Notes: a model not told the origin generated them from the letters alone. Counted from the stretch's first letter, positions 1,206 through 34,671 are shown. The stretch: DNA of 64,000 nt from Chloroflexota bacterium (GCA_003228115.1 QEVV01000006.1:25094-89093); one strand, 5' to 3'. Numbers and translations are program-made.

Positions 1206-1429
1206 CGAATAACACGCCTCCATAGAGTCGCTTGGGCCGTTGTCTGAGAGAGATGGTTCCTAAGCGTCGCTCCTTAGCGTCGCTCCTTTTGGGATTTTGC
1301 CACGGGAGCGCTCCCCTCTGTCAAGCGACATCTGAACCTACATCTACTAATGCAGGCCATCGCTTGACGCCTTTTGACCCGCGTGCCAGAATCGCGCCAC
1401 TAGCAATCACGAGCGGAGGAGGAGGACGT

Positions 1430-11959: not shown

Positions 11960-12559
11960 GTGGATAGATGGCTCAACAAGCCTAGCCGACCTGGAACAGC
12001 GGTACGACGAATGGCTAATGGCTATGACTCAGACTTGACGGAGAAGTACCACTACCAAGGCGCCCGCCTAGTCGCCGAATGCCTGGAACAGTACGTCGAC
12101 AAGCACGCCAGCATCCTGAATGCCGGCGCTGGCGGCGGCCTCTCCGGCGTGGCACTGGCTGCGAAAGGGTACGCAGATCTGGTTGCTATCGACCTATCAG
12201 AGGGTATGCTCCAATCGGCGCGAGAGAAGGGCGTCTACCGGGATGTCCACCGCATGGTGCTCGGCGAGGTCTTGGACTTCGAAGATGGAACATTTGATGC
12301 AGTGACTAGCGTGGGTATCTTCACGATGGCCCATGCACCAGCCAGTTCCTTCGACGAGCTGATCCGCGTTACCAAGCCGGGAGGGTACATCGTCTTCACG
12401 CTATCCGAAGAGGCCTACGAGAAGGCCGGCTTCAAGGAAAAGCTGGCAAGCCTTGAATCGGATTGGAAGTGGAGCAGGGTGGAGATGCAGCCAGGGCAGG
12501 AGCTCAGTCAGGGCTCAGGCGTCTTGCATCAGCTCTGGGTGTTCCAGACCAGCATCTGA
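11960..12559 (+). CDS. Class I SAM-dependent methyltransferase (5' end apparently frameshifted; see findings)
   Basis: ILNAGAGGGLSG (motif I), DLSEGML and VTKPGGYIVF. The likely ancestral start is ATG 11937, which follows AGGAGG but is in another frame. The internal ATG 12011 (MANGYDSDL) is an alternative start. Confidence 0.75.
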   Translation: MDRWLNKPSRPGTAVRRMANGYDSDLTEKYHYQGARLVAECLEQYVDKHASILNAGAGGGLSGVALAAKGYADLVAIDLSEGMLQSAREKGVYRDVHRMVLGEVLDFEDGTFDAVTSVGIFTMAHAPASSFDELIRVTKPGGYIVFTLSEEAYEKAGFKEKLASLESDWKWSRVEMQPGQELSQGSGVLHQLWVFQTSI

Positions 12560-12778
12560 GCGCCATGCTGCATTTCTCTCAGTAACGCTGTGACAGAGGG
12601 CCCTTCACCTTGATTGGGTGACGGAACGGGGACTGCCATCGCCCGGTTTGATCACCGACAGCCTGCGACGGACATGACTGCCCTTCCTGATCGGAGTCCG
12701 TGGTACCATGTGCGCTGCCTTCAGCGCACCAGCCATTGCATGGCCGCAAACGACAAACCAAAGGGAGAATAGCGCCGG

Positions 12779-13804
12779 ATGATTATCGACTGCCACGGAC
12801 ACTACACGACCGCCCCCCCTGGGATTCATGTCTACAGGGCGTTCCAGCTTGCCTTTATGAACAAGCCCAACAGAACGCAGATCAAGATAAGCGACGATGA
12901 GATTCAAACATCCCTGGAGAACGGGCAACTGAAGCTCCAAATGGAGCGTGGCACCGATATGATGCTGTTCTCGCCCAGGGCGTCGCACATGGGCCATCAT
13001 GTCGGGGACGAAGTAATCAGTCGCCAATGGACGGAGGTCAACAACGACCTCATAAAGCGCGTCTGCGGAATCTTCCCAGACCGCTTCATCGGGGTATGCC
13101 AGTTGCCTCAATCTCCGGGCGTCAGCCCCAAGAACTGCGTCGAAGAGTTGGAGCGCTGCATCACTGAATTAGACTTCGTCGGATGCAACTTGAACCCGGA
13201 CCCTTCTGGTGGTTGGTGGACCGATCCTCCGCTGGGCGACGAGTGGTGGTACCCACTCTACGAAAAGATGGTGGAGTTGGACGTGCCGGCCATGATTCAT
13301 GGCTCGTCCACCTGCAACCCGGCCTTCCACACGACGGGCTCCCACTACATGAACATCGACAACACCGGCATCATGCAGTTGCTGGAATCCAGGGTGTTCC
13401 AGGACTTTCCGACGCTAAGGATCATCATGCCCCACGGCGGCGGCGTAATCCCGTACCAGATCGCTAGATACCGGGCCCTGAGCATCATGAACAAGTGGGA
13501 ACCCTTCGAGGAGTTCATGCGGCGCTTCTACTTCGACACTGCCGTGTACAGCCCTGAGGCTATGGAGCTACTGATCAAGATCGTGGGGGTGGACCGCCTC
13601 ATCTTCGCATCGGAGATGCTGGGCGGCGTCACAACCATCGACCCCAACACGGGCCGCTGGTTTGACGACAACAAGCCCCTCCTGGATGAGATCACCTGGC
13701 TGTCCGAAGAAGACCGTCAAAAGATCTTCGAGGACAACGTCAAAGCGGCTTACCCGCGGTTGGGCCCGGTAATGGAGAAGCAGATGAAGGCGGCAAAGGG
13801 GTAG
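12779..13804 (+). CDS. Amidohydrolase-2 family protein, LigJ-like (4-oxalomesaconate hydratase-type N-terminus)
   Basis: MIIDCHGHYTT N-terminus, 341 aa, with HGGG and FASE motifs. The subfamily assignment rests on resemblance only. Confidence 0.75.
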   Translation: MIIDCHGHYTTAPPGIHVYRAFQLAFMNKPNRTQIKISDDEIQTSLENGQLKLQMERGTDMMLFSPRASHMGHHVGDEVISRQWTEVNNDLIKRVCGIFPDRFIGVCQLPQSPGVSPKNCVEELERCITELDFVGCNLNPDPSGGWWTDPPLGDEWWYPLYEKMVELDVPAMIHGSSTCNPAFHTTGSHYMNIDNTGIMQLLESRVFQDFPTLRIIMPHGGGVIPYQIARYRALSIMNKWEPFEEFMRRFYFDTAVYSPEAMELLIKIVGVDRLIFASEMLGGVTTIDPNTGRWFDDNKPLLDEITWLSEEDRQKIFEDNVKAAYPRLGPVMEKQMKAAKG

Positions 13805-13860
13805 AAGAAGCGCAAACGGGGCTGGCAGACCAGCGGGAGGGCTACTCAGCAGAAGACAAG

Positions 13861-13899
13861 AAAAGGGGGACGCTGGCCAGATGCCAGCGTCCCCCTTTT
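13861..13899. terminator. Bidirectional terminator between convergent genes
   Basis: AAAAGGGGGACGCTGGC, loop CAGAT, GCCAGCGTCCCCCTTTT. The stem is flanked by A4 and T4. Confidence 0.75.
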
Positions 13900-13923
13900 C
13901 ATTGGTTGTTGGGAGGCCGATGT

Positions 13924-14892
13924 TTACCCGGCCATCACTATCGCCACCTTACCCATGACGCGCCGTTCTTCTATGAAGCGCTGGGCCTCTCCGACTTCCG
14001 CGATGGGCCATGTTCGTTCAACGGTAGGCTTCAAGCGGCCGTCGGCGAGCATTTGCAAGAGTGCTGCAAAGTCGCTATGCGACGTGCCGGTGCCGCCGGA
14101 GCCAAGGACGGCTACCCGAAGACGGAAAATGTTGCTGAGGTTCAGCGTTACCTCTCGTCCTCCGGCCGTACCGTATATGGCAATGCGGCCATTGGGCTTG
14201 ATGCAATTGAGCGACTCAAGGAATGCGTTGCCGCCTACGCCGTCCACCACTGCGTCCACCCCAGCGCCGCCTGTTAGCTCCTTAACCTTGTCGGCGTAGG
14301 TGCCGCTGGAGTAGTTGACTCCATGGTCCATACCCTGGGCGCTTGCATAGGCCAGCTTCTCGTCGCTGCTCGCTGTGCCGATGACGGTCGCTCCTAGGAG
14401 CTTGGCGATCTGAATGGCGGCTACGCTCACGCCGCCCGCTGCCCCTTGGACCAGCACCGTCTGGCCTGCCTGGACCTGGCACTTGTTGACCAGGGCATCC
14501 CATGCCGTCGAGCATGTTATTACACACGTGGAGGCTTCAAGCATGCCCAGGCCCTTCGGCAGCTTGTAGAGATTCTCTGCCGGTGACTTCACAAGCTCCG
14601 CGTAGCTATAGCTCGCGTTCCGCAACGCTACTTCGTCCCCCACGGCAATGTTCGTCACTCCATCTCCGATGGACTCAACGATGCCCGCGCCCTCTCTACC
14701 AAGCAAGGAGGGAAAAACGAAGCCGCCCGCTGGAGCCGGGGCCCGGCCAGAGCGGGTTGTTATGTCGGTGGGGTTGACGCCGGCGCTGTGCATTCGTAGC
14801 ACTGCCTCGCCGGGACCCGGTTGAGGGTCCGCGACTTCTTCTAGTTTGAGGACTTCCGGGCCGCCGAATTCATGGAATTGGATTGCTTTCAT
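13924..14892 (-). CDS. Zinc-type/quinone oxidoreductase (MDR superfamily)
   Basis: MKAIQFHEFGGPEVL N-terminus and GAAGGVS cofactor motif. ATG 14892 follows AAGGAG. The track start 14916 is less likely. Confidence 0.85.
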   Translation of the reverse strand: MKAIQFHEFGGPEVLKLEEVADPQPGPGEAVLRMHSAGVNPTDITTRSGRAPAPAGGFVFPSLLGREGAGIVESIGDGVTNIAVGDEVALRNASYSYAELVKSPAENLYKLPKGLGMLEASTCVITCSTAWDALVNKCQVQAGQTVLVQGAAGGVSVAAIQIAKLLGATVIGTASSDEKLAYASAQGMDHGVNYSSGTYADKVKELTGGAGVDAVVDGVGGNAFLESLNCIKPNGRIAIYGTAGGREVTLNLSNIFRLRVAVLGSGGTGTSHSDFAALLQMLADGRLKPTVERTWPIAEVGEAQRFIEERRVMGKVAIVMAG

Positions 14893-14934
14893 GATGCTCC
14901 TTCTGAACATTCGCACAAATAGTTGGCTGGGGTC

Positions 14935-16407
14935 CTAGCTAAGATTCACCGTCACGCTCTTGCGCTGGGTGAAGCTCTCCAGCATGCCTTCCAAAGAAAA
15001 CTCTCGACCGATGCCGCTCATCTTGAAGCCGCCGTAGGAGTGCCCCGGGACCTGCCCGAGGCCTCGATTAACCTGAACCCAGCCCGATTCTATCGCGTGA
15101 GCCGTGCGCAGGGCCTTGCTAAGGTCCTTGCACCAGACGTAGGCGGCAAGCCCGTAGTGGCTGTCGTTGGCCATCTGAATGACTTCTTCTTCTTCCGACC
15201 AGGGAATGGCCACGACGACAGGGCCGAAGATCTCTTCGCGTGCGATACGCCAGTCATTGCCAACGTCCGCGATGATGGTTGGCTGGACGAAGAAACCGTC
15301 GGCAAGGGGGCCATCAGTGGGGGGAAGGCCACCCATCAGCACGCGCGCCCCCTGTTGCTCAATTCCCTCCGTGATGTAACTGCAAACCCGGTCGTACTGC
15401 TTGCGATTGATGATGGCGCCCATATCCACAGTCTCGTCCATGGGATCACCGATCTTCAAGGTCGATAGCTTGGCCATCATTTTCTCTAGGAAGGAGTCGT
15501 AGATGGACTCGTGGAGGAAGAGCCGGGAACCGGCGGTGCAAGACTGTCCCTGACGAGTGAACCGCATACCGGCGATAACGCCATCGACGGTCTTGTCGTC
15601 GATGGAATCAGGGAACACGACGGCTGGGCTCTTGCCGCCTAGCTCCAGTGAGACCGGCAGGATGCGCTCCGCTGCGGCGTGCATGACAAGTTTCCCGACC
15701 TCAGTCGAACCGGTGAAAGAGAGTTTCCCGATAAGCGGGTGGACTGCCAAAGCTGCGCCAGCTTCCTCGCCGTAACCGGTGATGATGTTCAGGACGCCCG
15801 GAGGAAGGATCTCGCTGCAGATCTGACCCATCTTCAGAACGGCGATCGGCGCATCTTCCGCTGCCTTCATCACCAGTGTATTCCCTGCGGTGATGGCCAT
15901 AGCAATCTTTAGCGCACCCAGCATTACGGGGGCATTCCAGGGAATGATTCCACCTACGACGCCTATGGGCTCCCGACGGTTGTAGACCAGCATGTCCTCG
16001 CTGATGGGTACAACCTCCCCCTTCAGCTCCGTAGCTACGCCCCCGAAATAACGAAAAATGTCAGCAGTCGTCTTCGCCTCGGGCCGTGCCTGGGTGCGGA
16101 TGGCATTGCCCGTCTCCAAGGCGATGGTATGGGCAATATCCTCAATTGCTGCTTCCATGGCATCGGCGATCCGCATCATCATGCGGCCTCGATCCCTCGG
16201 CGCGGCCACTCGCCACGTCTTGAATGCCGCCGCTGCTACTCGGACGGCGTGGTCGACGTCCGCCTCAGTGGCGCGCGGCACTCGGGCGATGGCTTCGCCA
16301 TGCCGCGCAGGGTTTTCTACCAAAATCGTCCGGCCGTCGATGGCCTGGATTTCCTTGCCATCAACAAGCATCGACAACACTTCCACCTGACCTGCTACTT
16401 CAACCAT
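14935..16407 (-). CDS. NAD(P)+-dependent aldehyde dehydrogenase
   Basis: ELGGKSP and GQSCTAGSR (catalytic Cys) motifs. ATG 16407 follows GGAGGAGGA. Confidence 0.9.
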   Translation of the reverse strand: MVEVAGQVEVLSMLVDGKEIQAIDGRTILVENPARHGEAIARVPRATEADVDHAVRVAAAAFKTWRVAAPRDRGRMMMRIADAMEAAIEDIAHTIALETGNAIRTQARPEAKTTADIFRYFGGVATELKGEVVPISEDMLVYNRREPIGVVGGIIPWNAPVMLGALKIAMAITAGNTLVMKAAEDAPIAVLKMGQICSEILPPGVLNIITGYGEEAGAALAVHPLIGKLSFTGSTEVGKLVMHAAAERILPVSLELGGKSPAVVFPDSIDDKTVDGVIAGMRFTRQGQSCTAGSRLFLHESIYDSFLEKMMAKLSTLKIGDPMDETVDMGAIINRKQYDRVCSYITEGIEQQGARVLMGGLPPTDGPLADGFFVQPTIIADVGNDWRIAREEIFGPVVVAIPWSEEEEVIQMANDSHYGLAAYVWCKDLSKALRTAHAIESGWVQVNRGLGQVPGHSYGGFKMSGIGREFSLEGMLESFTQRKSVTVNLS

Positions 16408-16547
16408 TCGTCCTCCTCCTCTGTTGTCATGGAAATACTGGGGGCCGCTTGGAAACTGCGAACGCTGAGGGTGGGTCTGAGACACCGCCCCTACCTGACG
16501 CTTGATCGCTTCGTGAGGGCTCCTGGCTTACACACCTACTTGCTGGT

Positions 16548-17441
16548 CTAAGCGCCGGGCTCCAGCAGCTTTGCTACAGCGGAGAAATCGAGCCTGCCAT
16601 AGCCCTGTCGACTGGCTGCTGCGTACATTTCCCGGGCCACGGCGGCCATGGTCATCGGTAGCTTCACTTCTGAGCCGGCTGCCAGAGCCAGGCCCAGGTC
16701 TTTATACATAAGGTCCGTCATGAACCCTGGTGCAAAGCCGTGGCTGGCGGGGCTGTCAGCAACGACCCCCGGCACAGGGCAACGAGTCTCCAGCGGCCAA
16801 CAGTTGCCTGAACTCTTGCTCATAACGTCGAACATTACCTGGGGATCGGCGCCCTTGGCCACCCCCAGAGCGAACGCCTCAGCCACGCCTACCATGGCCA
16901 CTGCCGCCACAAGGTTGTTGGCCAGCTTGACCGTTTCGCCCATGCCAATGGAACCACAATGGATGATGTTGGTTCCCATTGCCGATAGCAGGTCGTATTG
17001 AGCTTCCAGAAGATCAGCATCGCCGCCGACCATAATGGTGAGCGTGGCGGAGATGGCGCCGGCTGAGCCTCCGCTGACAGGGCCGTCCAACATCCGTGCT
17101 CCGGCAGCGGTCACTGCTTCGGCGACCTTGCGCGTGGTGTCGGGATCAATGGTGCTCATGTCGATGACCGTAGTCCCGCTCCGCAGGCCCGCTATGAAAC
17201 CATCAGGCCCATTGGCGGCGGCAACGACGTGCTGTGAGGCCGGCAGCATGCAAATGACGACCTCCACACCTTCAGTGGCTTCCCGAGCCGAACCAGCGAC
17301 CTTCGCTCCAAGCGACGCTATGGCCTCAACGGCCTCCCCGTTGATGTCGTAGATGGTGAGATCATGTCCTGCCTTGATTAAGTTTGTGGCCATGGGCCCG
17401 CCCATCGTTCCCAGGCCAATGAAACCTACCTTCTTGCTCAT
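16548..17441 (-). CDS. 3-hydroxyisobutyrate/beta-hydroxyacid dehydrogenase family
   Basis: VGFIGLGTMGGPMATNL Rossmann motif, followed by a 6-PGDH-like C-terminal domain pattern. Confidence 0.9.
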   Translation of the reverse strand: MSKKVGFIGLGTMGGPMATNLIKAGHDLTIYDINGEAVEAIASLGAKVAGSAREATEGVEVVICMLPASQHVVAAANGPDGFIAGLRSGTTVIDMSTIDPDTTRKVAEAVTAAGARMLDGPVSGGSAGAISATLTIMVGGDADLLEAQYDLLSAMGTNIIHCGSIGMGETVKLANNLVAAVAMVGVAEAFALGVAKGADPQVMFDVMSKSSGNCWPLETRCPVPGVVADSPASHGFAPGFMTDLMYKDLGLALAAGSEVKLPMTMAAVAREMYAAASRQGYGRLDFSAVAKLLEPGA

Positions 17442-17678
17442 TTGTGCTACCTCCCTCTATGCGTGGTGAACGTTATCATGCCGGGTATGGGTCTACAACG
17501 AGCGGGACAGTAGAGGGGCAAGGGAGCCCGAAGGTCCTCAGGTGGCCGGTCATTCCCCCGTGCGCAGAACTGGAACATAGGCACGCTGGCTCTACTAACA
17601 ACGACTTCGGGGTTAAGGCCATGGGACTCATGCCGAGGGGCCGATGTTGCGCCATATCGAAGGGCCGCGAGGGCGCGG

Positions 17679-18413
17679 TCAGTCCTTCAGGGCGGGCCAC
17701 TCCTTGTACAGCCTTCCGCCCCCTTTACCGTCCACCGGATGCCTTTGGCCCAATAGCGACAGAATGTGCCACAGCATAGAAGATGCGCTGGCGACAATGG
17801 GCAACTTGAAATCGGCTTCCATACGCTCTAGGACCGGCAGAGGGTCAAGGATGGCTGCTTGAAAGTAGATGGCGTCAACCTCACCCGCCTGAGCCAAACC
17901 CTCCGTGACGAGCTTGTAGATGTCATCTGGGCCAACGTTGGCGGCTGTCCGGAAGTCGGCTGTGGGTGGGGAGCCTATGACTGATTCAATGCCTCTTTCG
18001 GAAAGGAAGCCGCGTACCATTTCGTTCAGAGGCCCGTCGAACGGAGTCATAAGCATTACCCGGCGCGCGCCCAAAGCCTTCAATCCTGCGATGGATGACT
18101 CAAGGGCAGTGGTAACAGGTATTGAAGCGTTCTTTCGAATGCTGCCTGGCAGCCCAGGGGCGTAGAGCTGAACCGGGGCACCAACGAGCACAGCGCCCTG
18201 CCAGGCAGGATGGCGCTCAAAGATGGCTTGGGCCCTCTCCACGCCAAGCTCCTCCTTCCCCACTAGTGATGTGAGCGTTCCCTCGACCAAGTCCAAAGCC
18301 TCTATCTCCAAGGTTATGTTGCCTGGGATAAGGGGTTTGACATTGTCGAAGAACGCTCCGTTTCCGCTGTAAGGGGCAAGGTAGCCAACAGTGATGTGCT
18401 GGTCCTGGGTCAT
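17679..18413 (-). CDS. Asp/Glu/hydantoin racemase superfamily protein (maleate isomerase/arylmalonate decarboxylase-like), cysteine-free
   Basis: Family pattern RRVMLMTPF...GIESV and DAIYFQAAI...PIVASASSMLW. The translation contains no Cys at all. Confidence 0.65.
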   Translation of the reverse strand: MTQDQHITVGYLAPYSGNGAFFDNVKPLIPGNITLEIEALDLVEGTLTSLVGKEELGVERAQAIFERHPAWQGAVLVGAPVQLYAPGLPGSIRKNASIPVTTALESSIAGLKALGARRVMLMTPFDGPLNEMVRGFLSERGIESVIGSPPTADFRTAANVGPDDIYKLVTEGLAQAGEVDAIYFQAAILDPLPVLERMEADFKLPIVASASSMLWHILSLLGQRHPVDGKGGGRLYKEWPALKD

Positions 18414-18519
18414 GGCAATCTCCTCTGAGCGAAATCGTTAGGCCTGAAGTCTTCGGAAGAAACACTGGGTCGCCGGAAAGCATATTGACGTCTATGGATT
18501 GTAATTGGCATCAGTGGCC

Positions 18520-19341
18520 TTAGACAGGGATGGTTGCTAAGAAACCCAGGATCGCCCGATTGAACTCTTCCGGCTTCTCTACGTTGCACATGTGGCCCGC
18601 TCCCTTGATGACCTTCAGAGAGCAGTTAGGGATATGCCGGTTCATGTACTCACCCTCTTCGACGGGCGTGCGGCCGTCCTCTTCGCCATCAATGATGGCA
18701 GTGGGCACGTGAATGTCTCTAAGACGATCCCTAATATCAACGCCAAACGACGCTCTCGAATAGGCAACGGCGGAGTGCACGGCGATCTTGTAGGACTCTG
18801 CCGTGTATTTGCGAACTAGGGCTGGATCGTAGCTAGGGGAAAACCAGTACTTGGCGTACTGGTCAAGGAAGGCCTTCATGCCCAAGGTGGCAATTTCTTC
18901 GCCGATGGCCATGTTGGGAGCGTCGCCGGCCTTATCAGGGGGGAAACCCTTCAATGGGCCCTTGGCGGGAAAGCCTGCTAGTGCCCCGACCAAGGTCAGG
19001 CTCCTCACCCTTTCCGGAGCCAGGTGGTAGAGGAATTGGCCCACGAGAGTGCCCATGGACAAGCCTACGAAGTGGACGCTATCGAAGCCTAGCTCATTCA
19101 TCATCGCCAGCACATCGCTGGCCACAAGGGCAGGGGAGTAATGCTCATCGCCTTCGGGCTTGGCCGAGTCCCCGTGACCTCGCATGTCGATAGCGATGAC
19201 GCGGTAATTGGGCGTAAGCACCGGGAGCTGGAGGTCCCAAACGTTCTTGTGACCTCCGAAGCCGTGCACCATGACGACAACATCGCCGAACCCTTCATCC
19301 AGATAGGCGATCTCCAGTCCGTTGACCTTGATTGCAGGCAT
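18520..19341 (-). CDS. Alpha/beta hydrolase (enol-lactonase/meta-cleavage hydrolase-like)
   Basis: HGFGG oxyanion motif, GLSMG nucleophile elbow, and GAGHM near the C-terminus. Confidence 0.85.
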   Translation of the reverse strand: MPAIKVNGLEIAYLDEGFGDVVVMVHGFGGHKNVWDLQLPVLTPNYRVIAIDMRGHGDSAKPEGDEHYSPALVASDVLAMMNELGFDSVHFVGLSMGTLVGQFLYHLAPERVRSLTLVGALAGFPAKGPLKGFPPDKAGDAPNMAIGEEIATLGMKAFLDQYAKYWFSPSYDPALVRKYTAESYKIAVHSAVAYSRASFGVDIRDRLRDIHVPTAIIDGEEDGRTPVEEGEYMNRHIPNCSLKVIKGAGHMCNVEKPEEFNRAILGFLATIPV

Positions 19342-19376
19342 AGCTACTCCCGATCACACGTAAGTTTCATCAAATG

Positions 19377-20138
19377 TTAGGCATTATCGATGAGTCTGCC
19401 CCAGCCGAGGCTACGAGGCTTGGCCTTCATTGCCCGAAGCGTGGCCCAGAACATGGCAAGGTCTCCTCCCACCACTGGCAACCCCGTGTCCTCCTCAAGC
19501 TCTTTTGCCAGACCAATGAGACGCAAGCCACCACCGAGAACCACTATAGCTTCGGTGGAATCCGGGGCCCGCCTCGCTGTCTCCCGCACGGCTGCACAGG
19601 TCGGGGCAGGGTCATGGTCCCAGGCAAGCCGGTCCTGTTCCTCGATTGAGCCCACGATTCCTTGTTGAATCCAGCCTTCTTGATAAACAACTTCGAACCC
19701 GTTCGACTCGAGTCCAGAGCGGGCCATTTTCGCCCAATCGGCTGCCGTGTAGTAACCACCGGCAACCGCCACACGGCGCGCGCCAAATTCTGCAAGGGCC
19801 TCCAACATGGCAACACCCATCAGCACCACGGGCACGCCCGCTGCGCTGGCAACGCACGCCTGAATGGCGTGTGCATCCGGACCGTGGGTAAGAGAGAATG
19901 GAACGCCAAACTGAGCCACGATATCGGCTCCGGCGTCAGCAAGGTCGCGGGCCGCATCGTTCATCCCAGGCACCGCAGCCTTGATGACATCAAGCGAGAA
20001 GCCAGCCATCGTCTTGCCAAGAAGCGTTGCGGGTATGAAGGCGCCTGCTACTTCCGTGCCTTCGGGCGCTAAGCGGAGGAAGTCAGTGGGGGCGCTGTTG
20101 AACCAGCGCTTGGGGCCGAGAAACCCTATCTTGGCCAT
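19377..20138 (-). CDS. Asp/Glu/hydantoin racemase superfamily protein, second paralog
   Basis: RRVAVAGGYY...GFEVV and EAIVVLGGGLRLIG...PVVGGDLAMFW. The internal ATG 20138 (MAKIGFLG) removes the overlap with the upstream gene. Confidence 0.65.
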   Translation of the reverse strand: MAKIGFLGPKRWFNSAPTDFLRLAPEGTEVAGAFIPATLLGKTMAGFSLDVIKAAVPGMNDAARDLADAGADIVAQFGVPFSLTHGPDAHAIQACVASAAGVPVVLMGVAMLEALAEFGARRVAVAGGYYTAADWAKMARSGLESNGFEVVYQEGWIQQGIVGSIEEQDRLAWDHDPAPTCAAVRETARRAPDSTEAIVVLGGGLRLIGLAKELEEDTGLPVVGGDLAMFWATLRAMKAKPRSLGWGRLIDNA

Positions 20139-20163
20139 TGCATCGAGTCCGGTGGGCCGGACT

Positions 20164-20583
20164 CTACCTCTCCATAAGTAGCTGGCCGCCGTAGGTCTCA
20201 ACCTTGTCCACCTCGACGATGACAGCAACGCCCTTCTTCTCTGGATCCCTACCTTGCTCGAATTCGACGACCCGATCCCACACCTGCTCGCGAAGGTCTC
20301 CGCTTTCGATGACCGTTGCCCGACCGTAAAACTTCCATCCGATTCTGGCGTCCCTGTTCATGAACATCACGGCTATCTTCGGATTCTTGCTGACGTTGGC
20401 AAGGCCGTCTCGTTTGGATCTCTCCCAGTAGGCTAGGCGATCGGCGTCGAAGACCATGGTGCTGCCCCGGTAGCCGATGCTAGGCCACCCGTCCGGATCA
20501 GAGGCAGTCATGATGCAGGGGAAGCCGCTGGCCAGTGCAGCGTTCACGTTCTCAGCCATCTCTTCGGTTAGCTCAATTGCCAT
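20164..20583 (-). CDS. Pyridoxamine 5'-phosphate oxidase-like split-barrel flavoprotein
   Basis: 139 aa with a PNPOx/FMN-binding split-barrel sequence pattern (GWPSIGYRGS...IAVMFMNRD...). GGGAG RBS. Confidence 0.7.
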   Translation of the reverse strand: MAIELTEEMAENVNAALASGFPCIMTASDPDGWPSIGYRGSTMVFDADRLAYWERSKRDGLANVSKNPKIAVMFMNRDARIGWKFYGRATVIESGDLREQVWDRVVEFEQGRDPEKKGVAVIVEVDKVETYGGQLLMER

Positions 20584-20605
20584 CGATAGTTCTCCCAGGT
20601 CTAGA

Positions 20606-21529
20606 CTAGCTTGGAATTGCTTCTTTTTGGGTTATCACGGACACCCTTCCCGCGGGCGTGCTCGGATCGGGTTGATAAAGGTGCTCACGCCCTGGAGCCA
20701 GCTGCTCCATATACAAGACTTCTTCAAAGCCCTGGAATCTGATGGCTACTGCGTAGTAATAGTCTAGGGGCAGGTGGAGCTTAGCCACGCCCTTAGCGTT
20801 GGTGACGAAGCGGCCATGACCCGCAACTACAACTACCGCGCCAGGAACTGGAACGCCCTCTTGGTCAAGGATTTGCAACCTTGCGGCCCTCCTTGGAAAC
20901 AGCATACCGCTGGCCCACCGTCTGAGCTGCACAAAAGGCCCAGGCGTTGGCCCTGGTCCAATATTGTCGACTACGTCTTTCTCATACCCTATGTGCTTCG
21001 GTGTCCGCCAGTCAGGTCCGTACTTGAGCTGCAGATACTCTTCCGGCGGATTGGGAACCCTGAACTTCGTGCCTAGGAAGTCTATCTCCTTGAGCTGGTC
21101 GAAGAGCCGGACCGGAAGCACAACGCCCGGATAAATATGAACCTGTCCCTTTATGGGACGGAAGAAGGTCAGGGACATCATGTGCCTGTTCTTCAACATA
21201 CCCAGGTAGACGTGCGTATCGAATTCGTCCCTCTTTACGTAATAGTCCGCTTCCCGGAAAGCCGCGATGATGGGCTCAATCATTGCCTCTGAGAAGCCAT
21301 GCAGACCGAAGGTCGTCCCAAGGTCAATGTCATCATCCCAGGGAATGATCCCGCCTTCTCTTATGGCGCCGAGGCATATCCCATCGCGCAGATAGAAAGT
21401 TACCCCAAGCTCATCAAGGATGCCCTTTGCCTCTAGTAGAATCGCACCGGCAATAGCGGGATCCATAGCAGGGAGTGTTTTGATCAGCTCTTCAAGGATT
21501 GCTTCGTTTTCGACGTCGCTTAACGCCAT
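20606..21529 (-). CDS. LicD-family (phosphocholine/phospho-alcohol) transferase with a C-terminal extension
   Basis: DGICLGAIREGGIIPWDDDIDLG is the LicD signature. About 100 extra C-terminal residues resemble a carboxypeptidase-regulatory-like beta-sandwich. ATG 21529 is preferred because track start 21574 overlaps the upstream gene. Confidence 0.75.
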   Translation of the reverse strand: MALSDVENEAILEELIKTLPAMDPAIAGAILLEAKGILDELGVTFYLRDGICLGAIREGGIIPWDDDIDLGTTFGLHGFSEAMIEPIIAAFREADYYVKRDEFDTHVYLGMLKNRHMMSLTFFRPIKGQVHIYPGVVLPVRLFDQLKEIDFLGTKFRVPNPPEEYLQLKYGPDWRTPKHIGYEKDVVDNIGPGPTPGPFVQLRRWASGMLFPRRAARLQILDQEGVPVPGAVVVVAGHGRFVTNAKGVAKLHLPLDYYYAVAIRFQGFEEVLYMEQLAPGREHLYQPDPSTPAGRVSVITQKEAIPS

Positions 21530-21539
21530 CGGTACTGCC

Positions 21540-22283
21540 TTATAACTGAACGGTGGTGAATAAATCCTCTGCATTCGCTAGGTCTTCCTTCGTGTCGACC
21601 TCTATCCAGCGGCGATTCCCCGTCTGGTGCACACCCAGTTGAATCTTGCCCTCGCTGATGAGGCCTGCGAGAACCGCTTCATAAAACTGTTCGGTGAGCC
21701 CCTCGGTCACAAACCAGTCAAGCTTCGGAAGAAAGTGCTCCCGCATGGTGCCTTGCGAGATCTTGTAGATGTTCACGGTCTTCAGGGCATCGTTGTAGCG
21801 AAAACCCGCTGACTGATTGGCCCCCAGCACCAGGGAAGTTGCTACACCGTGCTCGGAAAGTATTACCGTTCCATTCATGAACGGCTGGAACGCCTCAACC
21901 ACGGCGGCATCGGCGTGGGGCTGACCCATAAGGTCAGTGATAAGCTCTGGTTCAAAGAGAAGGTCCCCGTCGAGCAACAGAATGTCGTCTGCCAATAGGT
22001 GCCGGGCCAGCCACAACGAGTAGATGTTATTGGTTTTCAGGTGCTCTTCGTTGGTAACGTAGGTAAGCCGCATGTCTCCGAACATGGCGCCGAACCGTTC
22101 CCGGACCAACTCGCAGAGATAGCCGACGACAATGACACAGTGATCAACGCCAACTTGCTGTAGAGATGCCAGCTCGTGTTCCAGAATCGGCTTCCCAAGC
22201 ACTTCTACCAAGCACTTGGGCACCCGGTTAGTTAGTGGCCGCAGCCTGGTTCCGCCACCTGCCGCTAGGATGACTGCCTTCAT
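21540..22283 (-). CDS. LicC-like nucleotidyltransferase (cytidylyltransferase family)
   Basis: MKAVILAAGGGTRLRP, VVGYL and NNIYSLWL match the LicC-type pattern. Its ATG overlaps the upstream stop (ATGA). Confidence 0.8.
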   Translation of the reverse strand: MKAVILAAGGGTRLRPLTNRVPKCLVEVLGKPILEHELASLQQVGVDHCVIVVGYLCELVRERFGAMFGDMRLTYVTNEEHLKTNNIYSLWLARHLLADDILLLDGDLLFEPELITDLMGQPHADAAVVEAFQPFMNGTVILSEHGVATSLVLGANQSAGFRYNDALKTVNIYKISQGTMREHFLPKLDWFVTEGLTEQFYEAVLAGLISEGKIQLGVHQTGNRRWIEVDTKEDLANAEDLFTTVQL

Positions 22284-23395
22284 TTCTCCGCTCTCCTGCC
22301 CAGACGAGCCTCTTCCCCAGCCATGCCCGAGCTTAGCGATAGGAGAGCATCGATTAGCTCTGCGTTCTCTTCCTTGGTGCGGGAAGCCATCCTGACATAC
22401 TGACCATCAAGGCCACTCTTGCCGCCGCAGTCGTTAATCAATATGTTGCATTCATCGAATAGGCGTGCAGTCAAATCTGAGCCCGTTGAGCCCCCGACGA
22501 CTCGGCTAAGGACGTAATTGCCCTCGCTTGCGTAGGGGTGAAGGTAGGGAACGGTTTGTAACCCGGCGAACAAGGCGTCGGTCGCCTGTCTCACCAGTTC
22601 GCAGGACTCGACGAACTCTGATCGATACGCTTCTAGCTCCTCCAAGAACGCCTGAGCCAGAGAGTTGATGCTCCAAATGGGAATGGCGCTACGGAGTTCG
22701 GCCACGACTTCTTCTTTGCCAGAAACGGCATATCCCAATCGCAGTCCCGGAATGCCATAGGCCTTGGAGAGGCTCTTCAGGATAACGAGGTTAGGAAACT
22801 CGAAGATCGCATCCATCACAGACGGCGAAAGACCCTGGCTGGAGAAGTCGAGAAAGGACTCGTCCACCAAAACGAGATCGAGATGGCGGAGGGACTCAAG
22901 GAGATGCAGGACCTCTTGCCGGGAGACGAGCTTGCCGGAGGGGTTATTGGGGTTAATCACCAACGCAGCATTGGCATGAGTGTCTTGTACATGCCTAACG
23001 AACGCCGGCACGTCCAACTCGAAGTCTCCGTCGAGCTGGTACGGACTTACCCGCTTGCCTTCGATCACTGCTCTGTTCACGAACTCATCGAAGGTGGGCA
23101 CTGCCACTGCCAGGTGCTCTACGAAACGACTGGCGATAGCCGTAATTAGTTCGCTCGCTCCGTTGGCCACCACGACTTGCTCATGTGTCAAACCCAGGGG
23201 TTCGGCGGCCAAGGAGGAAATGTGCCCGTTGGTAGAAGGGTAGGAGGAGACAAGCTCCTTTAGCCGCAGTCCGAGGGAATCGAACATTCCCTGCGGGGGA
23301 AAGTAGCGGTTGGTCATGTAGCAGAAGTCTTTGACCTCGTAGTTCCAGAAACCTCCGTATCGGGAGGCTACGTCTTTCACATTCAGTCGACTCAT
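22280..23395 (-). CDS. Class I/II PLP-dependent aminotransferase/decarboxylase (HisC/CobD-like)
   Basis: NPNNPSGK and SLSKAYGIPGLRLGY (PLP Lys) motifs. ATG 23395 follows GGAG. The track start 23632 overlaps the HyuB gene and is unlikely. Confidence 0.8.
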   Translation of the reverse strand: MSRLNVKDVASRYGGFWNYEVKDFCYMTNRYFPPQGMFDSLGLRLKELVSSYPSTNGHISSLAAEPLGLTHEQVVVANGASELITAIASRFVEHLAVAVPTFDEFVNRAVIEGKRVSPYQLDGDFELDVPAFVRHVQDTHANAALVINPNNPSGKLVSRQEVLHLLESLRHLDLVLVDESFLDFSSQGLSPSVMDAIFEFPNLVILKSLSKAYGIPGLRLGYAVSGKEEVVAELRSAIPIWSINSLAQAFLEELEAYRSEFVESCELVRQATDALFAGLQTVPYLHPYASEGNYVLSRVVGGSTGSDLTARLFDECNILINDCGGKSGLDGQYVRMASRTKEENAELIDALLSLSSGMAGEEARLGRRAEK

Positions 23396-23532
23396 AGGTT
23401 TGCACTCCGAATCACGCCCCGTTTGGGGGGCACAGGAGCACTCTATCACGTTCGCGATGTGACCATTCCCAGGTTCCAGGCGTGGTCGTGAGGCGAATTG
23501 ATGAATTGGAACACGTGGCTGAATTACCCCGG

Positions 23533-25773
23533 CTATTGCGGAGTTAGCCAAAAGTCCTGATATGGCTCGTCTGACTCCGCAATGGCAGGGCAGACCACGT
23601 CGCTTTGCAGTAAGACCCCGCACCCAGGGCAATAGAACCTGTGGAACTCGCCAATGTAAGGCTCACCCGAAGGCATCCTTTGCCCCGCCAGGTCCTCAAG
23701 GCTTTCAACCACCCTGGAGCTGTAGGACTTATAGTTCTCGTCAGCTCCGCAGAATAGGTGTCCACAGTCCGAACAGCGAATGGCAAGGTCATTGCCGGAG
23801 GCCGCTACTTCCAAGGTCTCGTGGAACTGGAGGAAGGGCTCCCAAATAGCGGACTTTCGTTCCAGCGATAGAGACGATGTTTGACCCGAATGAGAAGCTG
23901 CGGCCGACCGCTCCTTGCGTATACGCGCCCGAAGGGCCTCCGTCGCCTTTTCTTCCAGTGCAAATGATTCAGAGCCAACAATAACGCCAAACAACTTCTC
24001 AGCCATCCGTACCGAAACGATTCCATCGCGGACATCTTTGACCACACGCCAAGACTCCCTTTGGACGGGGTCCCCATAGCCTGCGCCACCGGCAGCAAAG
24101 TCAGTGACGATGGAGTACTCCGGTAGCGGAGATCGTCCGAGCATTTCGGGCGAGTGTTTAACCGTGCCCCATCCCTCCTTCTCCAACTGTTCGGGCCTGA
24201 TGGGGTAGGGCTCCTTCTTTAAGCGTTCGATTATGGAAGAGCCCTCCGTGTGGAACACACCTCGAGTGCCGCCAACACCCGATGGTAGACCGCCGAAAAG
24301 CCCGGCCCCTTCAGGAATGCCGCCGTAGGGCATGTAGTTCACCGTCGTGTCCTGAGAGCCGTAGATCATATACATGCGGTAGCTTCCGGCCCCACCGATG
24401 AACTTTCCCGCTCCGCCGCCGTCCCGGTGGAAGTTCCGAGTGAAGTACAAGAACGGGTACTGCATTTCAATGCGCTCGACGTCGCTGATCCCGCCGGAAG
24501 GAATGTTCATGTTCCCCCCGCAAGGAACGCCGTCACGGTCCGGGGTTGCCCCCAGGCCGGAGCCGTGACCGTCGTAGAGCCCCTGAGCCGTCACCATCCC
24601 TGCACGATTGTGGCCGCCGTAGAAGGACAGGGGGCCGCCGCTGTACCAAATGCCCTGCCAGGGAGCGTTGATGTCGTCGGATTGACCTCCGGCGTAGAGC
24701 ATCTTAGCTATGCACTCGCTAGCCGCCATTTTTGCGGTGACACCTACGCCCGGAGCACCGCCGCAAGCAGCAGGGAATGTGCAGTTCAGGATGCTCCCTT
24801 CCGGCGCCGATGATTTCACAGGGGCAAACTTCCCATCGCTCCAAGGGACGTCCCAGAACAAAAAGTCCGTCAGAACCACCGCCAATTGGGCCATCGTCCC
24901 TGCCCACGATGAGTTGGTGGTGTCAGTCATTTGGCCACTGGAGCCCGTGAAGTCGAACGACAACTCGTCATCCTGCTTGGTCATGGTGCAGGCGACGAGA
25001 TAGGGCTGAACCCCGCCGTTGACCCGGTCCCAAGCGGTCCCGTAGGCGTGCGAGGCCCAGGTGCCATTTGGCAAGCCCCGGAGCTTGGCCCTGGCCATCC
25101 GTTCAGAGTCCTCGATGATCTTTTCACCAGCCATTTGGATGAAGTCGACCCCGAACTTGCCTACTAGCTCAAGGTAGCGCTTGGAGCAGACGTTGTTGGA
25201 CGTAATCATCGACTTCATATCCAGACCAACATAGCCCGGGTCCCGGCACTGCTCCGTGATGCAACGAAACACGTCTTCGCGAAACTCGCCCTTCTCGACC
25301 AGCTTCAGGCCCTGAATCCGTATGCCCTCGTGGAAGATCTCAGTGGCCAGTCCCCGCATGACGCCGCCGGTGTCGGCCGTATGGATGCTGGAAGCCAGCC
25401 AGCCTATAAGCTCCCCGGCGTGGAACATGGGCTTGACGATCATCATGTCGTAGGTGTGAGCGCCGGCGATGTACGGGTCGTTGAAGAACAGTTGGTCTCC
25501 CTCGAAGAAACCAGGGCTGTCCGCATACCATTCGATCAGCTTCTTGATGGCGTCTGAGGTGGCCGCGGCAAAGCGGAGGTGGCCGGAACAAGCCAGCACC
25601 ATGACGCCGTCTTTGTTATAAAACGAACTCATGCATTCGCCGCCCTGGGACACGATGGGGGACGCGGTGACCTGCTGGAGCGATGTCCGTCCCTCCTCAC
25701 CGATGGCCCATAGGCGGTGCAGAAACATCTCATATTTAACTGGGTCCAGTTGAGCAGTTACAGCGGTTACCAT
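23533..25773 (-). CDS. Hydantoinase B/oxoprolinase family protein, acetone-carboxylase-alpha-like, with a C-terminal Cys4 module
   Basis: HyuB-type N-terminus LDPVKYEMFLHRLWAIGEEG. The C-terminus carries CSDCGHLFC...CPGCG. ATG 25773 follows GGAGGG. Confidence 0.85.
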   Translation of the reverse strand: MVTAVTAQLDPVKYEMFLHRLWAIGEEGRTSLQQVTASPIVSQGGECMSSFYNKDGVMVLACSGHLRFAAATSDAIKKLIEWYADSPGFFEGDQLFFNDPYIAGAHTYDMMIVKPMFHAGELIGWLASSIHTADTGGVMRGLATEIFHEGIRIQGLKLVEKGEFREDVFRCITEQCRDPGYVGLDMKSMITSNNVCSKRYLELVGKFGVDFIQMAGEKIIEDSERMARAKLRGLPNGTWASHAYGTAWDRVNGGVQPYLVACTMTKQDDELSFDFTGSSGQMTDTTNSSWAGTMAQLAVVLTDFLFWDVPWSDGKFAPVKSSAPEGSILNCTFPAACGGAPGVGVTAKMAASECIAKMLYAGGQSDDINAPWQGIWYSGGPLSFYGGHNRAGMVTAQGLYDGHGSGLGATPDRDGVPCGGNMNIPSGGISDVERIEMQYPFLYFTRNFHRDGGGAGKFIGGAGSYRMYMIYGSQDTTVNYMPYGGIPEGAGLFGGLPSGVGGTRGVFHTEGSSIIERLKKEPYPIRPEQLEKEGWGTVKHSPEMLGRSPLPEYSIVTDFAAGGAGYGDPVQRESWRVVKDVRDGIVSVRMAEKLFGVIVGSESFALEEKATEALRARIRKERSAAASHSGQTSSLSLERKSAIWEPFLQFHETLEVAASGNDLAIRCSDCGHLFCGADENYKSYSSRVVESLEDLAGQRMPSGEPYIGEFHRFYCPGCGVLLQSDVVCPAIAESDEPYQDFWLTPQ

Positions 25774-25824
25774 ATTCCCTCCATGATGATTGTTGAGGCG
25801 CTCATATGAGCCCTCCAGCAACTT

Positions 25825-26514
25825 CTAAGCATCGAACCAGCTTCGCGCTTCCTTGCCTTGGAACAGCTTGCCTGTGATGTTGGCAGGCTGCGTTACGAGA
25901 AACAGGGCGGCTGCGGCCGAGGTCCTGGGGTCGCCGGGGGCGTCTGGGGCCATGTCTGTCCGGACCCAGCCTGGCGATAGAACGTTAACCGCCACCCTTC
26001 CCCGGAGCTCCTCAGCCACCGCAAGGCTCATTCCATGCAATGCGAGCTTTGTGACGCCATACGTGCCATGCAAAGTTGGTGACATGATTCCTGCGCGGGA
26101 ACCAAGGTTCAAGACTCTGGGGTCGTCCGACTTTAGTAATAGGCTCAGCATGCGTTTCGTGCACAGGTACGGGCCGAGCACATTCACAGCCATCGCAATG
26201 GATAGCAATTCATCCGGCCCGTCGGTCAATTCACGGCTCTCTTCGGAAAATACAGCGGCGTTGTTGACTAGGATGTCCAGCTTGTCCCACTGGTTCCCAA
26301 CGTATTCGACGACGCGGTCAACATCTTGTGCCTGGGAGACGTCGGCCTGAAGTATTTGGAGGCCCGGTAACGCGCCGAGCGCTTGGGCGAGCTTCGAAGA
26401 GTCTCTGGACACCGCTAGGACGGCAGCGCCTTCTTCGAGAAGTATCTTGCATATTTCGAAGCCTATACCCCGGCTTCCTCCGGTTACCACCGCGGTCTTG
26501 CCGACCAATTGCAT
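25825..26514 (-). CDS. Short-chain dehydrogenase/reductase
   Basis: TGGSRGIG, NNAA and YGVTK motifs. Confidence 0.9.
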   Translation of the reverse strand: MQLVGKTAVVTGGSRGIGFEICKILLEEGAAVLAVSRDSSKLAQALGALPGLQILQADVSQAQDVDRVVEYVGNQWDKLDILVNNAAVFSEESRELTDGPDELLSIAMAVNVLGPYLCTKRMLSLLLKSDDPRVLNLGSRAGIMSPTLHGTYGVTKLALHGMSLAVAEELRGRVAVNVLSPGWVRTDMAPDAPGDPRTSAAAALFLVTQPANITGKLFQGKEARSWFDA

Positions 26515-26637
26515 GCCTCAACTCCATATCAGGCGAGTGGCGACAAGTTACCAGCCGCGCTAGGATGAGGCAACCGGAAAAGCGCAGCCTTTCGCACTTG
26601 GTAACGAACCCTATGCCGTTAAGGAGGCTCCAACATT

Positions 26638-27033
26638 ATGGACAATTCAACTTACAACCAACTAACGAATGAAGAACGCTACGTCATCGAATCAAAGGGG
26701 ACTGAGAGGCCGTTCTCAGGGGAGTACGACAACTTCTACAAAGAGGGCGTCTACATTTGCCGCAGATGCAACGCAGAGCTATACAAGTCGGACGACAAGT
26801 TCGACGCTCACTGTGGCTGGCCAGCCTTCGACCAGGAGATAGAAGGGGCAGTTACTCGTCTGCCTGACCCCGATGGTCACCGAATTGAGATCGAATGCGC
26901 CAACTGCAGTGGCCACCTGGGCCACGTCTTCTTAGGGGAACGCCTAACACCGGCGAACACGCGTCACTGCGTCAACTCACTGTCGATGAAGTTCGTTCCT
27001 GCAGGGGAGAGTAAGGCCACGGCTTCTGGCTAG
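26638..27033 (+). CDS. msrB: Peptide-methionine (R)-S-oxide reductase
   Basis: CRRC...CANC zinc cysteines, GWPAF and RHCVNS (catalytic Cys). AAGGAGG RBS. Confidence 0.95.
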
Positions 27034-31950: not shown

Positions 31951-32006
31951 GATGAATCCGTGTCCTGCCGATATTCCCTACGGAAGGATACCATCATGAC
32001 TGAGGA

Positions 32007-33194: not shown

Positions 33195-33273
33195 AGGAGT
33201 GTCACCAAAGGTTTCTGGGAGAGGGCGGAGGCTTTAGACAGCGGTACTTCCTGTGGCGTAATCCCAAGAGCCC

Positions 33274-34638: not shown

Positions 34639-34671
34639 ATCGCCACCTTGAGCCAGGTTCGGACCTGAGTA

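Follow-up and report, generated by a model that had tools for sequence, protein, structure and literature searches.

To our knowledge, all characterised enzymes with the fold shared by maleate isomerase and arylmalonate decarboxylase (AMDase), a branch of the Asp/Glu racemase superfamily, depend on one or two active-site cysteines. There are two catalytic cysteines in maleate isomerase and in the racemases of the fold. In AMDase the second carboxylate of the substrate is expelled from a hydrophobic pocket and the enediolate is protonated by Cys188, and engineering of this enzyme works by moving or removing active-site cysteines. A stretch of 64,000 nucleotides from Chloroflexota bacterium GCA_003228115.1 (QEVV01000006.1:25094-89093; hereafter the window) encodes two relatives of these enzymes, here called proteins A and B, with no cysteine at either catalytic position. 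As far as can be judged from sequence, A and B represent two different subfamilies of this supposedly cysteine-dependent fold, both of them conserved, uncharacterised and Cys-free. The two genes are as follows:

17679-18413, minus strand: protein A (winA), 244 amino acids, Cys-free; Pfam Amdase, 61.7 bits; probable member of the A-type subfamily; motifs G78-A-P, M-T123-P-F-D, I-Y183-F-Q185-A186-A and A-S209-A-S
19377-20138, minus strand: protein B, 253 amino acids; Pfam Amdase, 83 bits; member of the Gly/Gly clade with PDB 4ix1; motifs Q76-F-G78-V-P80-F-S, Y129, L201-G202-G-G-L-R206 and G-G-D226

AMDase has been defined by 12 criteria (Maimanakos et al. 2016, PMC4996985), which include the proton donor Cys188 with Gly74 opposite it, a dioxyanion hole of Thr75, Ser76, Tyr126 and Gly189 that binds one carboxylate, the pair Pro14-Pro15, and a hydrophobic pocket of Leu40, Val43, Tyr48, Val156 and Met159. 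The enzyme (EC 4.1.1.76; Bordetella bronchiseptica; PDB 3DG9/3IP8/3DTV) shares its fold and Pfam family with A and B, is the best or near-best match of both in sequence and structure, and gives both of them better scores than maleate isomerase does. Maleate cis-trans isomerase (NicE/Iso/MaiA; PDB 2XEC, 2XED, 4FQ7) has the same fold as well. Its catalytic pair we take to be Cys76 and Cys194 of the Nocardia enzyme, the one after beta-strand 3 and the other after a strand of the C-terminal domain.

The first-pass annotation, made from the sequence of the window, had read 17679-18413 as a 244-residue protein on the racemase scaffold without any cysteine, and the open reading frame (ORF), the Pfam match and the structural model all bear this out. 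Both proteins exceed the gathering score of Pfam Amdase (PF17645; 25.9), A with 61.7 and B with 83.0 bits. AlphaFold2 models built on the family alignments reach a pLDDT of 93.3 and a pTM of 0.91 for A, and of 89.7 and 0.90 for B. When these models were compared with the PDB by Foldseek, A matched 4fq5 (maleate isomerase), 3dtv/3ixm (AMDase) and 4ix1 at template-modelling (TM) scores of 0.75-0.84, and B matched 4ix1 at 0.78-0.87 and then AMDase, all with probability 1.00. Pfam, the models and Foldseek all place A and B in the predicted fold of the maleate isomerase/AMDase branch; a different fold family, raised earlier as an alternative, receives no support from any of them.

The catalytic positions were assigned by four agreeing alignments (HMMER pairwise, family profile against PDB, MAFFT and HHalign). 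The first-Cys site of the racemases and isomerases, which is Gly74 in AMDase, corresponds to Gly78 in A and likewise to Gly78 in B, and the second, AMDase Cys188, to Ala186 in A (YFQ-A-A) and Gly202 in B (VVL-G-GG). The early reading that QFGVPFS and VLGGGLRL of B occupy the Cys-motif positions was therefore right, since all four alignments give Gly78 and Gly202. The residues that follow the first site are Ala-Pro in A and Val-Pro in B, as against Thr75-Ser76 in AMDase. In the models the catalytic-site residues stand just past strands 71-76 and 181-184 (A) and 73-76 and 197-201 (B), which is where the fold puts catalytic residues and so agrees with the aligned sites.

There is no cysteine in A, and the two in B lie elsewhere: Cys95 (in IQACVAS) is replaced by Gln in homologs and Cys181 (in PTCAAV) by Asn or Lys. 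Neither is conserved, and the possibility that one of them might be the equivalent of a catalytic cysteine falls away. The residue directly before the canonical second site, position 201, was also considered. It is Cys in 14 of 22 aligned B-type sequences (VVCGGG), Leu in the window's B and its nearest relatives, Phe or Thr in others, and Ser, Thr, Ala or Pro across the wider clade. A displaced cysteine in B was rejected on these grounds, Cys95 and Cys181 being unconserved and position 201 being Leu in the window protein and variable elsewhere.

A and B had been described as paralogs. Their homology stands (HHalign probability 99.1%), but close paralogy does not: they share only 19-23% identity and appear to be members of two old, different subfamilies. 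All characterised chemistry of the branch requires thiols that neither protein has, and the same is true of their relatives: Cys occurs at either catalytic site in none of 47 A-type and none of 37 B-type sequences; the A-type proteins have Gly, Ala or Val at the first site and Gly or Ala at the second. The absence of cysteine is thus a conserved trait of the families and no local mutation.

Held against AMDase, both proteins keep the equivalent of Gly74 and replace Cys188. The dioxyanion hole reads Ala79, Pro80, Phe125 and Ala187 in A, with none of the four residues kept, and Val79, Pro80, Tyr129 and Gly203 in B, with two of four kept. Pro14 is retained in both (Pro9 in B), while Pro15 is Tyr in A and Lys in B. 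The pocket is only partly hydrophobic in either protein; B keeps the equivalents Ile52 and Ile161, Met159 is unconserved, and for Leu40 and Met159 the methods differ in how they align B. The AMDase motifs LMGTSLSF and ILLSCGGL are absent from both, and against the NCBIfam AMDase equivalog NF052327 (cut-off 225) A scores 58.1 and B 69.1. By these measures A and B are not AMDases. B is 100% identical to an NCBI entry named 'MAG: arylmalonate decarboxylase [Chloroflexi bacterium]', a name left unsupported because the score is 69 against 225 and because Cys188, Thr75 and Ser76 are missing. Many relatives are labelled 'maleate cis-trans isomerase' in the same way.

The match to maleate isomerase is close in structure, 4fq5 being A's top Foldseek match (TM 0.75), and its C-terminal half is aligned at 1e-11 to 1e-15. 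The catalytic Cys pair is nonetheless Gly/Ala in A and Gly/Gly in B, and 'ISACVQ' of 4fq7 aligns with 'YFQAAI' of A. The title of 2XED names a succinyl-Cys intermediate, and the nucleophilic cysteine of that structure is missing in A and B; with both cysteines gone, thiol-addition isomerisation would be impossible with the residues of either protein. The hydantoin, allantoin and Asp/Glu racemases (PF01177; PDB 2EQ5, 3QVK, 1JFL) share the superfamily fold at TM 0.5-0.65, and are more distant and two-Cys enzymes. The PF01177 gathering score of 31 is missed by A (20.1) and passed by B (40.3), with no Cys at either site in the two proteins. EutA of ectoine utilisation (TIGR02990) scores 45.4 and 41.3 against a cut-off of 318. 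Taken at face value, these comparisons place A and B outside the maleate isomerases, the hydantoin racemases and EutA.

The closest solved relative of B is PDB 4IX1 (OPAG_01669 of Rhodococcus opacus PD630), a structural-genomics hypothetical protein that matches at E = 6e-28 and at a TM of up to 0.87. It has a Cys-less signature like that of B, namely Q-x-G-T-P-F-S at the first site, G-A-A at the second, and S-S-D. Unlike B, it is actinobacterial, lacks His85, has His in place of Arg206 and is flanked by MFS (major facilitator superfamily) transporter genes; the two share about 29% identity in the structural alignment.

The Gly/Gly clade to which both belong, as defined here and not curated, has Q-x-G-x-P at the first site, G-x-G-x-[RH] at the second and an Asp opening the last helix. 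B fits this definition (Q76-F-G-V-P80, G202-G-G-L-R206, D226), as do 4ix1 and most of the Cys-less representatives described below. The invariant residues of the B-type sequences are Q76, G78, P80, F81, S82, H85, Y129, G202-G204, R206 and D226. An exhaustive profile search for the B-type family among clusters at 50% identity gave 37 at E<1e-30, 620 at E<1e-10 and 2437 at E<1e-3. Of the best 145 full-length representatives, 93 are Cys-less at the two sites, 31 carry a single Cys there and 21 carry both. The 145 were drawn from 150 representatives with a bias to B-like sequences, and the figure of 93 in 145 does not give the Cys-less share of the family at large.

In this set the loss of cysteine co-varies with Gln76, Pro80 and Asp226. 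Asp or Glu stands at 226 in 60 of the 93 Cys-less representatives and in one of the 52 that contain Cys, where Asn is usual. The corresponding figures are 67/93 against 9/52 for Gln at 76 and 70/93 against 12/52 for Pro at 80, and Tyr129, the equivalent of AMDase Tyr126, is kept in 82 of the 93. A shares with the clade only the G-x-P element, having Val at position 76 and Ala (Asn in its family consensus) at the Asp position, and for this reason is placed outside it.

The A-type subfamily is defined here by the motifs G-A-P, M-T-P-F-D, I-Y-F-Q-G-A and A-S-N-P-A-M-L-W. The protein search yielded 45 clusters at 90% identity, and one-genome-per-species GTDB contigs contain 249 confirmed loci, all in metagenome-assembled genomes (MAGs). 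The carriers are Dehalococcoidia/SAR202, Binatia, Desulfobacterota-type 'Deltaproteobacteria' and a few others. Invariant residues are P30, P99, T123, P124, Y183, F184, Q185, E199, S209 and W215, and winA keeps the A-type invariants P80, T123, P124, Y183, F184, Q185, E199, S209 and W215. Its closest relatives (48-55% identity, Dehalococcoidia) form tandem A-A' pairs, some of them overlapping, in which both copies are Cys-less and retain the motifs; such pairs may be heterodimers within the A family. They occur at:

L012:6435-7948, tandem A-A' pair
L013-L015, tandem A-A' pairs
L017:9025-10717, tandem A-A' pair
L018:8965-10717, tandem A-A' pair

A third Cys-less type (HPEGAPPF ... LGSGWR ... HPV) adjoins A-type genes at L077:8518-9321 and L079:14334-15089 (minus strand), in a Herminiimonas MAG and a deltaproteobacterial MAG.

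Both proteins show the marks of selection. Between the window and the related locus L001, the ratio of nonsynonymous to synonymous substitution rates (dN/dS) is 0.11 for A, 0.085 for B and 0.10 for the neighbouring hydrolase, PNPOx-like and HIBADH genes, values that are approximate because dS is near saturation. The five canonical active-site loops make up 32 of 253 positions in B and hold 13 of its 31 invariant residues (Fisher p = 8e-6), and make up 34 of 244 positions in A and hold 13 of 35 (p = 1e-4). The cleft is thus the constrained part of both proteins, which argues against decay, and selection of this kind appears to favour other catalytic residues or ligand binding, both suggested at the outset, over decay.

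The two genes belong to an array that the first-pass annotation had described as co-directional, with A and B bracketing a hydrolase that carries GLSMG and with a split-barrel protein, a beta-hydroxyacid dehydrogenase and an aldehyde dehydrogenase alongside. The Pfam and NCBIfam matches agree with each of these assignments. Besides A and B, its members and the hairpin beyond its end are:

20606-21574, minus strand: LicD-like gene of the co-directional, tightly spaced minus-strand array
20164-20583, minus strand: PNPOx-like split-barrel protein, 139 amino acids; PF01243, 51 bits; weak PDB matches to HupZ
18520-19341, minus strand: alpha/beta hydrolase, 273 amino acids, nucleophile motif GLSMG; Abhydrolase_1, 102 bits
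16548-17441, minus strand: HIBADH-family beta-hydroxyacid dehydrogenase; 3-hydroxyisobutyrate dehydrogenase equivalog TIGR01692, 343 bits against a cut-off of 292
14935-16407 (ORF to 16485), minus strand: aldehyde dehydrogenase; PF00171, 516 bits; no NCBIfam equivalog cut-off reached
13924-14916, minus strand: quinone-oxidoreductase-type medium-chain dehydrogenase, final gene of the array; ADH_zinc_N; PIG3 subfamily, 228 bits
13860-13900: perfect hairpin with an 18-bp stem and 12 G-C pairs, terminator-like on both strands, with T-rich bases past the stem on each side

Genes A and B are co-directional and 964 bp apart. The gaps are 25 nt between the PNPOx-like gene and B, 35 nt between B and the hydrolase, 106 nt between the hydrolase and A, and 237 nt between A and the HIBADH gene. 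The best start of B is the ATG at 20138 (MAKIGF...), as in all homologs; a longer TTG-initiated ORF, to 20228, would overlap the upstream gene. The aldehyde dehydrogenase start at 16407 fits the 490-residue ortholog in L001. The hydrolase looks intact and esterase/lactonase-like: its closest named model is the 3-oxoadipate enol-lactonase PcaD (TIGR02427; 151 bits, under the cut-off of 256), and its best PDB matches are esterases at about 1e-26. The hairpin sits between the quinone-oxidoreductase-type gene (end 13924) and a convergent Amidohydro_2 gene (end 13804) and probably is the terminator that closes the array; there is no comparable hairpin in the intergenic gaps between 13924 and 22283. 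A scan of the array for sigma-70-like promoters, which may not apply to Chloroflexi, found none, and an Rfam scan of 12000-27000 found no RNA element.

Several other genes of the window were noticed along the way. Directly upstream of the array, 20606-23275 (minus strand) holds LicD-like, nucleotidyltransferase (NTP_transferase) and class I/II aminotransferase-fold genes, a set reminiscent of phosphocholine- or phosphonate-type decoration systems. Hydantoinase_B/oxoprolinase-type (HyuB-type) genes lie at 23533-25821 and 47208-48920 (both minus strand), with no HyuA partner noticed nearby; the first of them is fused to an Acetone_carb_G-like region, judged by its L001 ortholog. A biotin synthesis cluster occupies 29990-35691 (minus strand) and comprises BioD-like (AAA_26), beta-ketoacyl synthase, BioF-like, BioA-like and BioB-like (radical SAM + BATS) genes. 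The N-terminal motif GPGTPMG..LMRRYWHP opens two genes, at 1-1223 (minus strand) and at 39792-41135 (plus strand), the latter confirmed as a Rieske/LigXa-type oxygenase. In other Chloroflexi, an ortholog (about 560 bits) of the Amidohydro_2 gene at 12779-13804 (plus strand) lies within a few kb of B-type genes. Catabolism of aromatic compounds and oxygenated acids seems well represented in this genome.

The contexts of relatives were surveyed in the best 80 of the 249 A-type loci, in five confirmed B-type metagenome loci and in 10 context look-ups; the relatives come nearly all from MAGs, and their neighbour genes were called by a longest-ORF rule, which in GC-rich DNA lets through some spurious antisense ORFs. 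B-type genes at 62-65% identity to the window's (L003-L009, L101) stand alone, with no second family gene, and in L003-L009 they overlap by 4 nt the stop codon of an upstream gene for a 412-residue bicupin. Nearby lie genes for a LigB-type dioxygenase, the Amidohydro_2 ortholog, a Zn-dehydrogenase and a Rieske/LigXa oxygenase. A luciferase-like monooxygenase gene follows a B-type gene at 54% identity, and one at 44% identity is preceded by short-chain dehydrogenase/reductase (SDR) and MmgE/PrpD genes and faces a bicupin gene.

The bicupin family, of about 410 residues, is also present in seven A-type loci (L051, L056, L061, L064, L066, L080, L088), at 2-5 kb from the A-type gene, and so adjoins both Cys-less subfamilies in different phyla. 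In four of the seven the order is conserved: bicupin, small ORF, luciferase-like monooxygenase, 445-residue ORF, A-type gene, solute-binding protein. Bicupin genes are found at:

L005:6766-8004, L003:6763-8004 and L064:14264-15499, bicupin genes
L099:10940-12166, L080:5275-6519, L088:5466-6608, L051:6993-8120 and L066:2296-3372, bicupin genes on the minus strand

Its invariant motifs, E-x-H-x-x-E...H and H...H-x-H, suggest metal sites. The family has no specific Pfam or NCBIfam model and no PDB match by single sequence, and a profile search gave only marginal matches, to auxin-binding protein, gentisate 1,2-dioxygenase (3.7e-4) and oxalate decarboxylase. It is absent from the 64-kb window.

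Other neighbours of A-type genes include TraB/GumN-like, Amidohydro_2, UbiD-like, creatininase and cyclase genes, ABC solute-binding proteins and luciferase-like monooxygenases. In Rhodococcus and Amycolatopsis the 4ix1-type genes lie between two MFS transporters, and those of Rhodococcus stand beside NicX-, FAD-monooxygenase- and molybdenum-hydroxylase-type genes, a setting of N-heterocycle catabolism in which one would expect a maleate isomerase. Hydrolases also occur close to 4ix1-type genes, but they are not orthologous to that of the window (at most 25% identity), and a conserved hydrolase link was rejected. A tblastn search of the plasmid collection returned only distant or C-terminal-half matches, the best full-length one at 28% identity, and no usable annotated context. 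What these contexts have in common is the breakdown of oxygenated or ring-derived carboxylates, though they do not converge on one pathway.

The explanation that we favour, tentatively and with somewhat less than even confidence, is that A and B are functional, separate cytoplasmic proteins and that each, alone or with partners other than the other, would be a thiol-independent enzyme acting on a cleft-bound carboxylate catabolite. The carboxylate would still be bound in the canonical inter-domain cleft. For B this is suggested because it keeps the equivalents of Tyr126 and Gly189 (Tyr129 and Gly203) together with the conserved Arg206; it also keeps Pro9 and some pocket hydrophobics, and gains Asp226 and Gln76. 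The proton transfer of the cysteine would fall to water or to a different residue. For the B clade the candidate acid/base is Asp226; it opens the last helix, where Asn or Ser is canonical (the position of AMDase Ser212, a residue unmentioned in the AMDase paper searched). From the topology of the fold, in which the last strand pairs alongside strand 3, the Asp226 loop would be expected to neighbour the vacated first-Cys loop. The A family offers as candidates the invariant Gln185, directly before the vacated second-Cys position, and Glu199; Ser209 is also fixed.

The favoured reaction would be either decarboxylation, without a cofactor, of a beta-keto-type acid or substituted malonate, or else isomerisation of an oxygenase product by proton transfer (keto-enol or allylic). 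Two-base racemisation and cis-trans isomerisation through thiol addition are less likely. A suitable substrate could arise in the window if the esterase and the HIBADH-type and aldehyde dehydrogenases led from an ester or lactone through a hydroxy-acid and a semialdehyde to a 2-substituted malonate, a route that is speculative, the gene order being conserved only within the lineage. A more specific proposal, which we regard as doubtful, is that Asp226, fixed together with Gln76 and Pro80 upon the change of Cys to Gly, would serve as acid/base in the B/4ix1 clade. The clade would then be a natural thiol-free decarboxylase or proton-transfer isomerase acting downstream of flavin monooxygenases and of the bicupin of about 410 residues, a previously undescribed metalloenzyme on this view, as SAR202-type Chloroflexi, Binatia and their relatives degrade oxidised carboxylic acids, and the A-type proteins would be a second, independent solution built on the invariant Y-F-Q.

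A number of points weigh against thiol-independent catalysis. AMDase without Cys188 is crippled. No member of either subfamily has a known activity, and a literature search found no paper on 4IX1 or OPAG_01669 and none on any Cys-less member or its activity; the SAR202 papers it returned concern enolase-superfamily racemases, not the present fold. The closeness of Asp226 to the substrate is predicted from fold topology. With Thr75 and Ser76 replaced and the pocket partly unconserved, an AMDase-like decarboxylation would need a rebuilt site. Moreover, winA and its three nearest relatives change the near-invariant Gly186 to Ala, Asn210 to Ala and Pro211 to Ser, which may reflect a shifted specificity where A sits near B and makes A, by its alignment, a somewhat atypical A-type member. 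The contexts are heterogeneous too, with A-type genes among housekeeping genes in many Dehalococcoidia, where neighbours such as PlsX, a MaoC-like dehydratase, a VWA protein and an ECF sigma factor are uninformative. The translational coupling of B-type and bicupin genes would also fit the role of an accessory subunit.

Such a role, in which A and B would be non-catalytic ligand-binding or accessory proteins that deliver or sense a cleft-bound carboxylate or stabilise a partner (the bicupin, the PNPOx-like protein or the hydrolase), is in our view unlikely. It would account for the loss of both thiols and of the oxyanion-hole Thr/Ser, and the conserved cleft fits binding as well as catalysis; the 4-nt overlap in L003-L009 is a pattern common for subunits of one complex, and the window's B begins 25 nt past the PNPOx-like gene. 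The partner is inconstant, however (bicupin, MmgE/PrpD, luciferase-like monooxygenase, PNPOx-like or none), 4ix1-type genes are solitary, as are most A-type genes, and a newly fixed Asp226 that co-varies with Cys loss is more typical of a changed catalytic device. That thiol chemistry is kept, with the thiol supplied by Cys201 (VVCGGG) or by a small molecule lodged in the space left by the change of Cys to Gly, is an improbable alternative. Cofactor-dependent maleylpyruvate isomerases offer a precedent for a small-molecule thiol, and maleylpyruvate, the product of gentisate 1,2-dioxygenase, needs a cis-trans isomerase. The remote similarity of the bicupin to that dioxygenase and the Gly at both sites, which leaves room for a cofactor, would suit such a scheme, as would the frequent Cys at 201, adjacent to 202. 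Against this, the variability of position 201 is the pattern of a buried strand end and not of a catalytic residue, A and B of the window have no usable Cys, no thiol-cofactor genes were seen nearby, and the bicupin assignment is very weak.

An obligate A/B heteromer, with an active site or regulation shared between unlike subunits, was among the first suggestions and is now very improbable. The close, co-directional placement of A and B recurs in L001/L002, tandem A-A' pairs occur in other Dehalococcoidia (L012-L015, L017, L018), and A-type genes adjoin the third Cys-less type in L077 and L079, so that pairing of family members does recur at low frequency. But the full order of PNPOx-like gene, B, hydrolase, A, HIBADH, aldehyde dehydrogenase and quinone-oxidoreductase-type gene is found outside the window only in L001/L002, in a genome whose orthologs are 75-77% identical, and adjacency confined to such close relatives is best read as inherited synteny. 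Among the 80 A-type loci inspected, 75 have no second family gene within 10 kb; no B-type locus outside the window lineage, at 44-65% identity, has an A-type neighbour; and in the MAG GCA_002238425.1 the two types are on separate contigs, B-type on MPMJ01000001 (L005) and A-type on MPMJ01000008 (L045). Within the array itself the hydrolase gene and a 106-nt gap separate A from B. A conserved A/B pairing was accordingly rejected, none being seen outside the window's own lineage in the sampled contexts, and lineage-restricted adjacency together with separate occurrence leaves the obligate heteromer unsupported. Finally, it is hardly credible that the genes are decaying or neutral remnants of isomerase or decarboxylase genes without present function. 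Residues essential for all known activities of the branch have indeed been lost, yet the ORFs are intact, dN/dS (0.085-0.11) equals that of the neighbouring enzymes, invariant motifs mark both Cys-less subfamilies, each of which is conserved in several phyla, and the models are folded with high confidence.

If the thiol-independent reading is correct and A and B are active enzymes, they would represent a different catalytic solution within a well-studied, cofactor-free scaffold, would give a function to the orphan structure 4ix1, and would call for correction of the widespread 'arylmalonate decarboxylase' and 'maleate isomerase' annotations. If they are binding subunits instead, they would be a clear case of a racemase-derived pseudoenzyme family. 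The clades in question are large, with at least 93 clusters (50% identity) around B and 249 A-type loci in species-representative genomes. They are carried by uncultured lineages (SAR202-type Dehalococcoidia, Binatia, Desulfobacterota-type MAGs) for which a part in degrading refractory organic matter is under discussion, and recurring neighbourhoods that combine a bicupin, a monooxygenase and a Cys-less protein may mark an unrecognised catabolic step.

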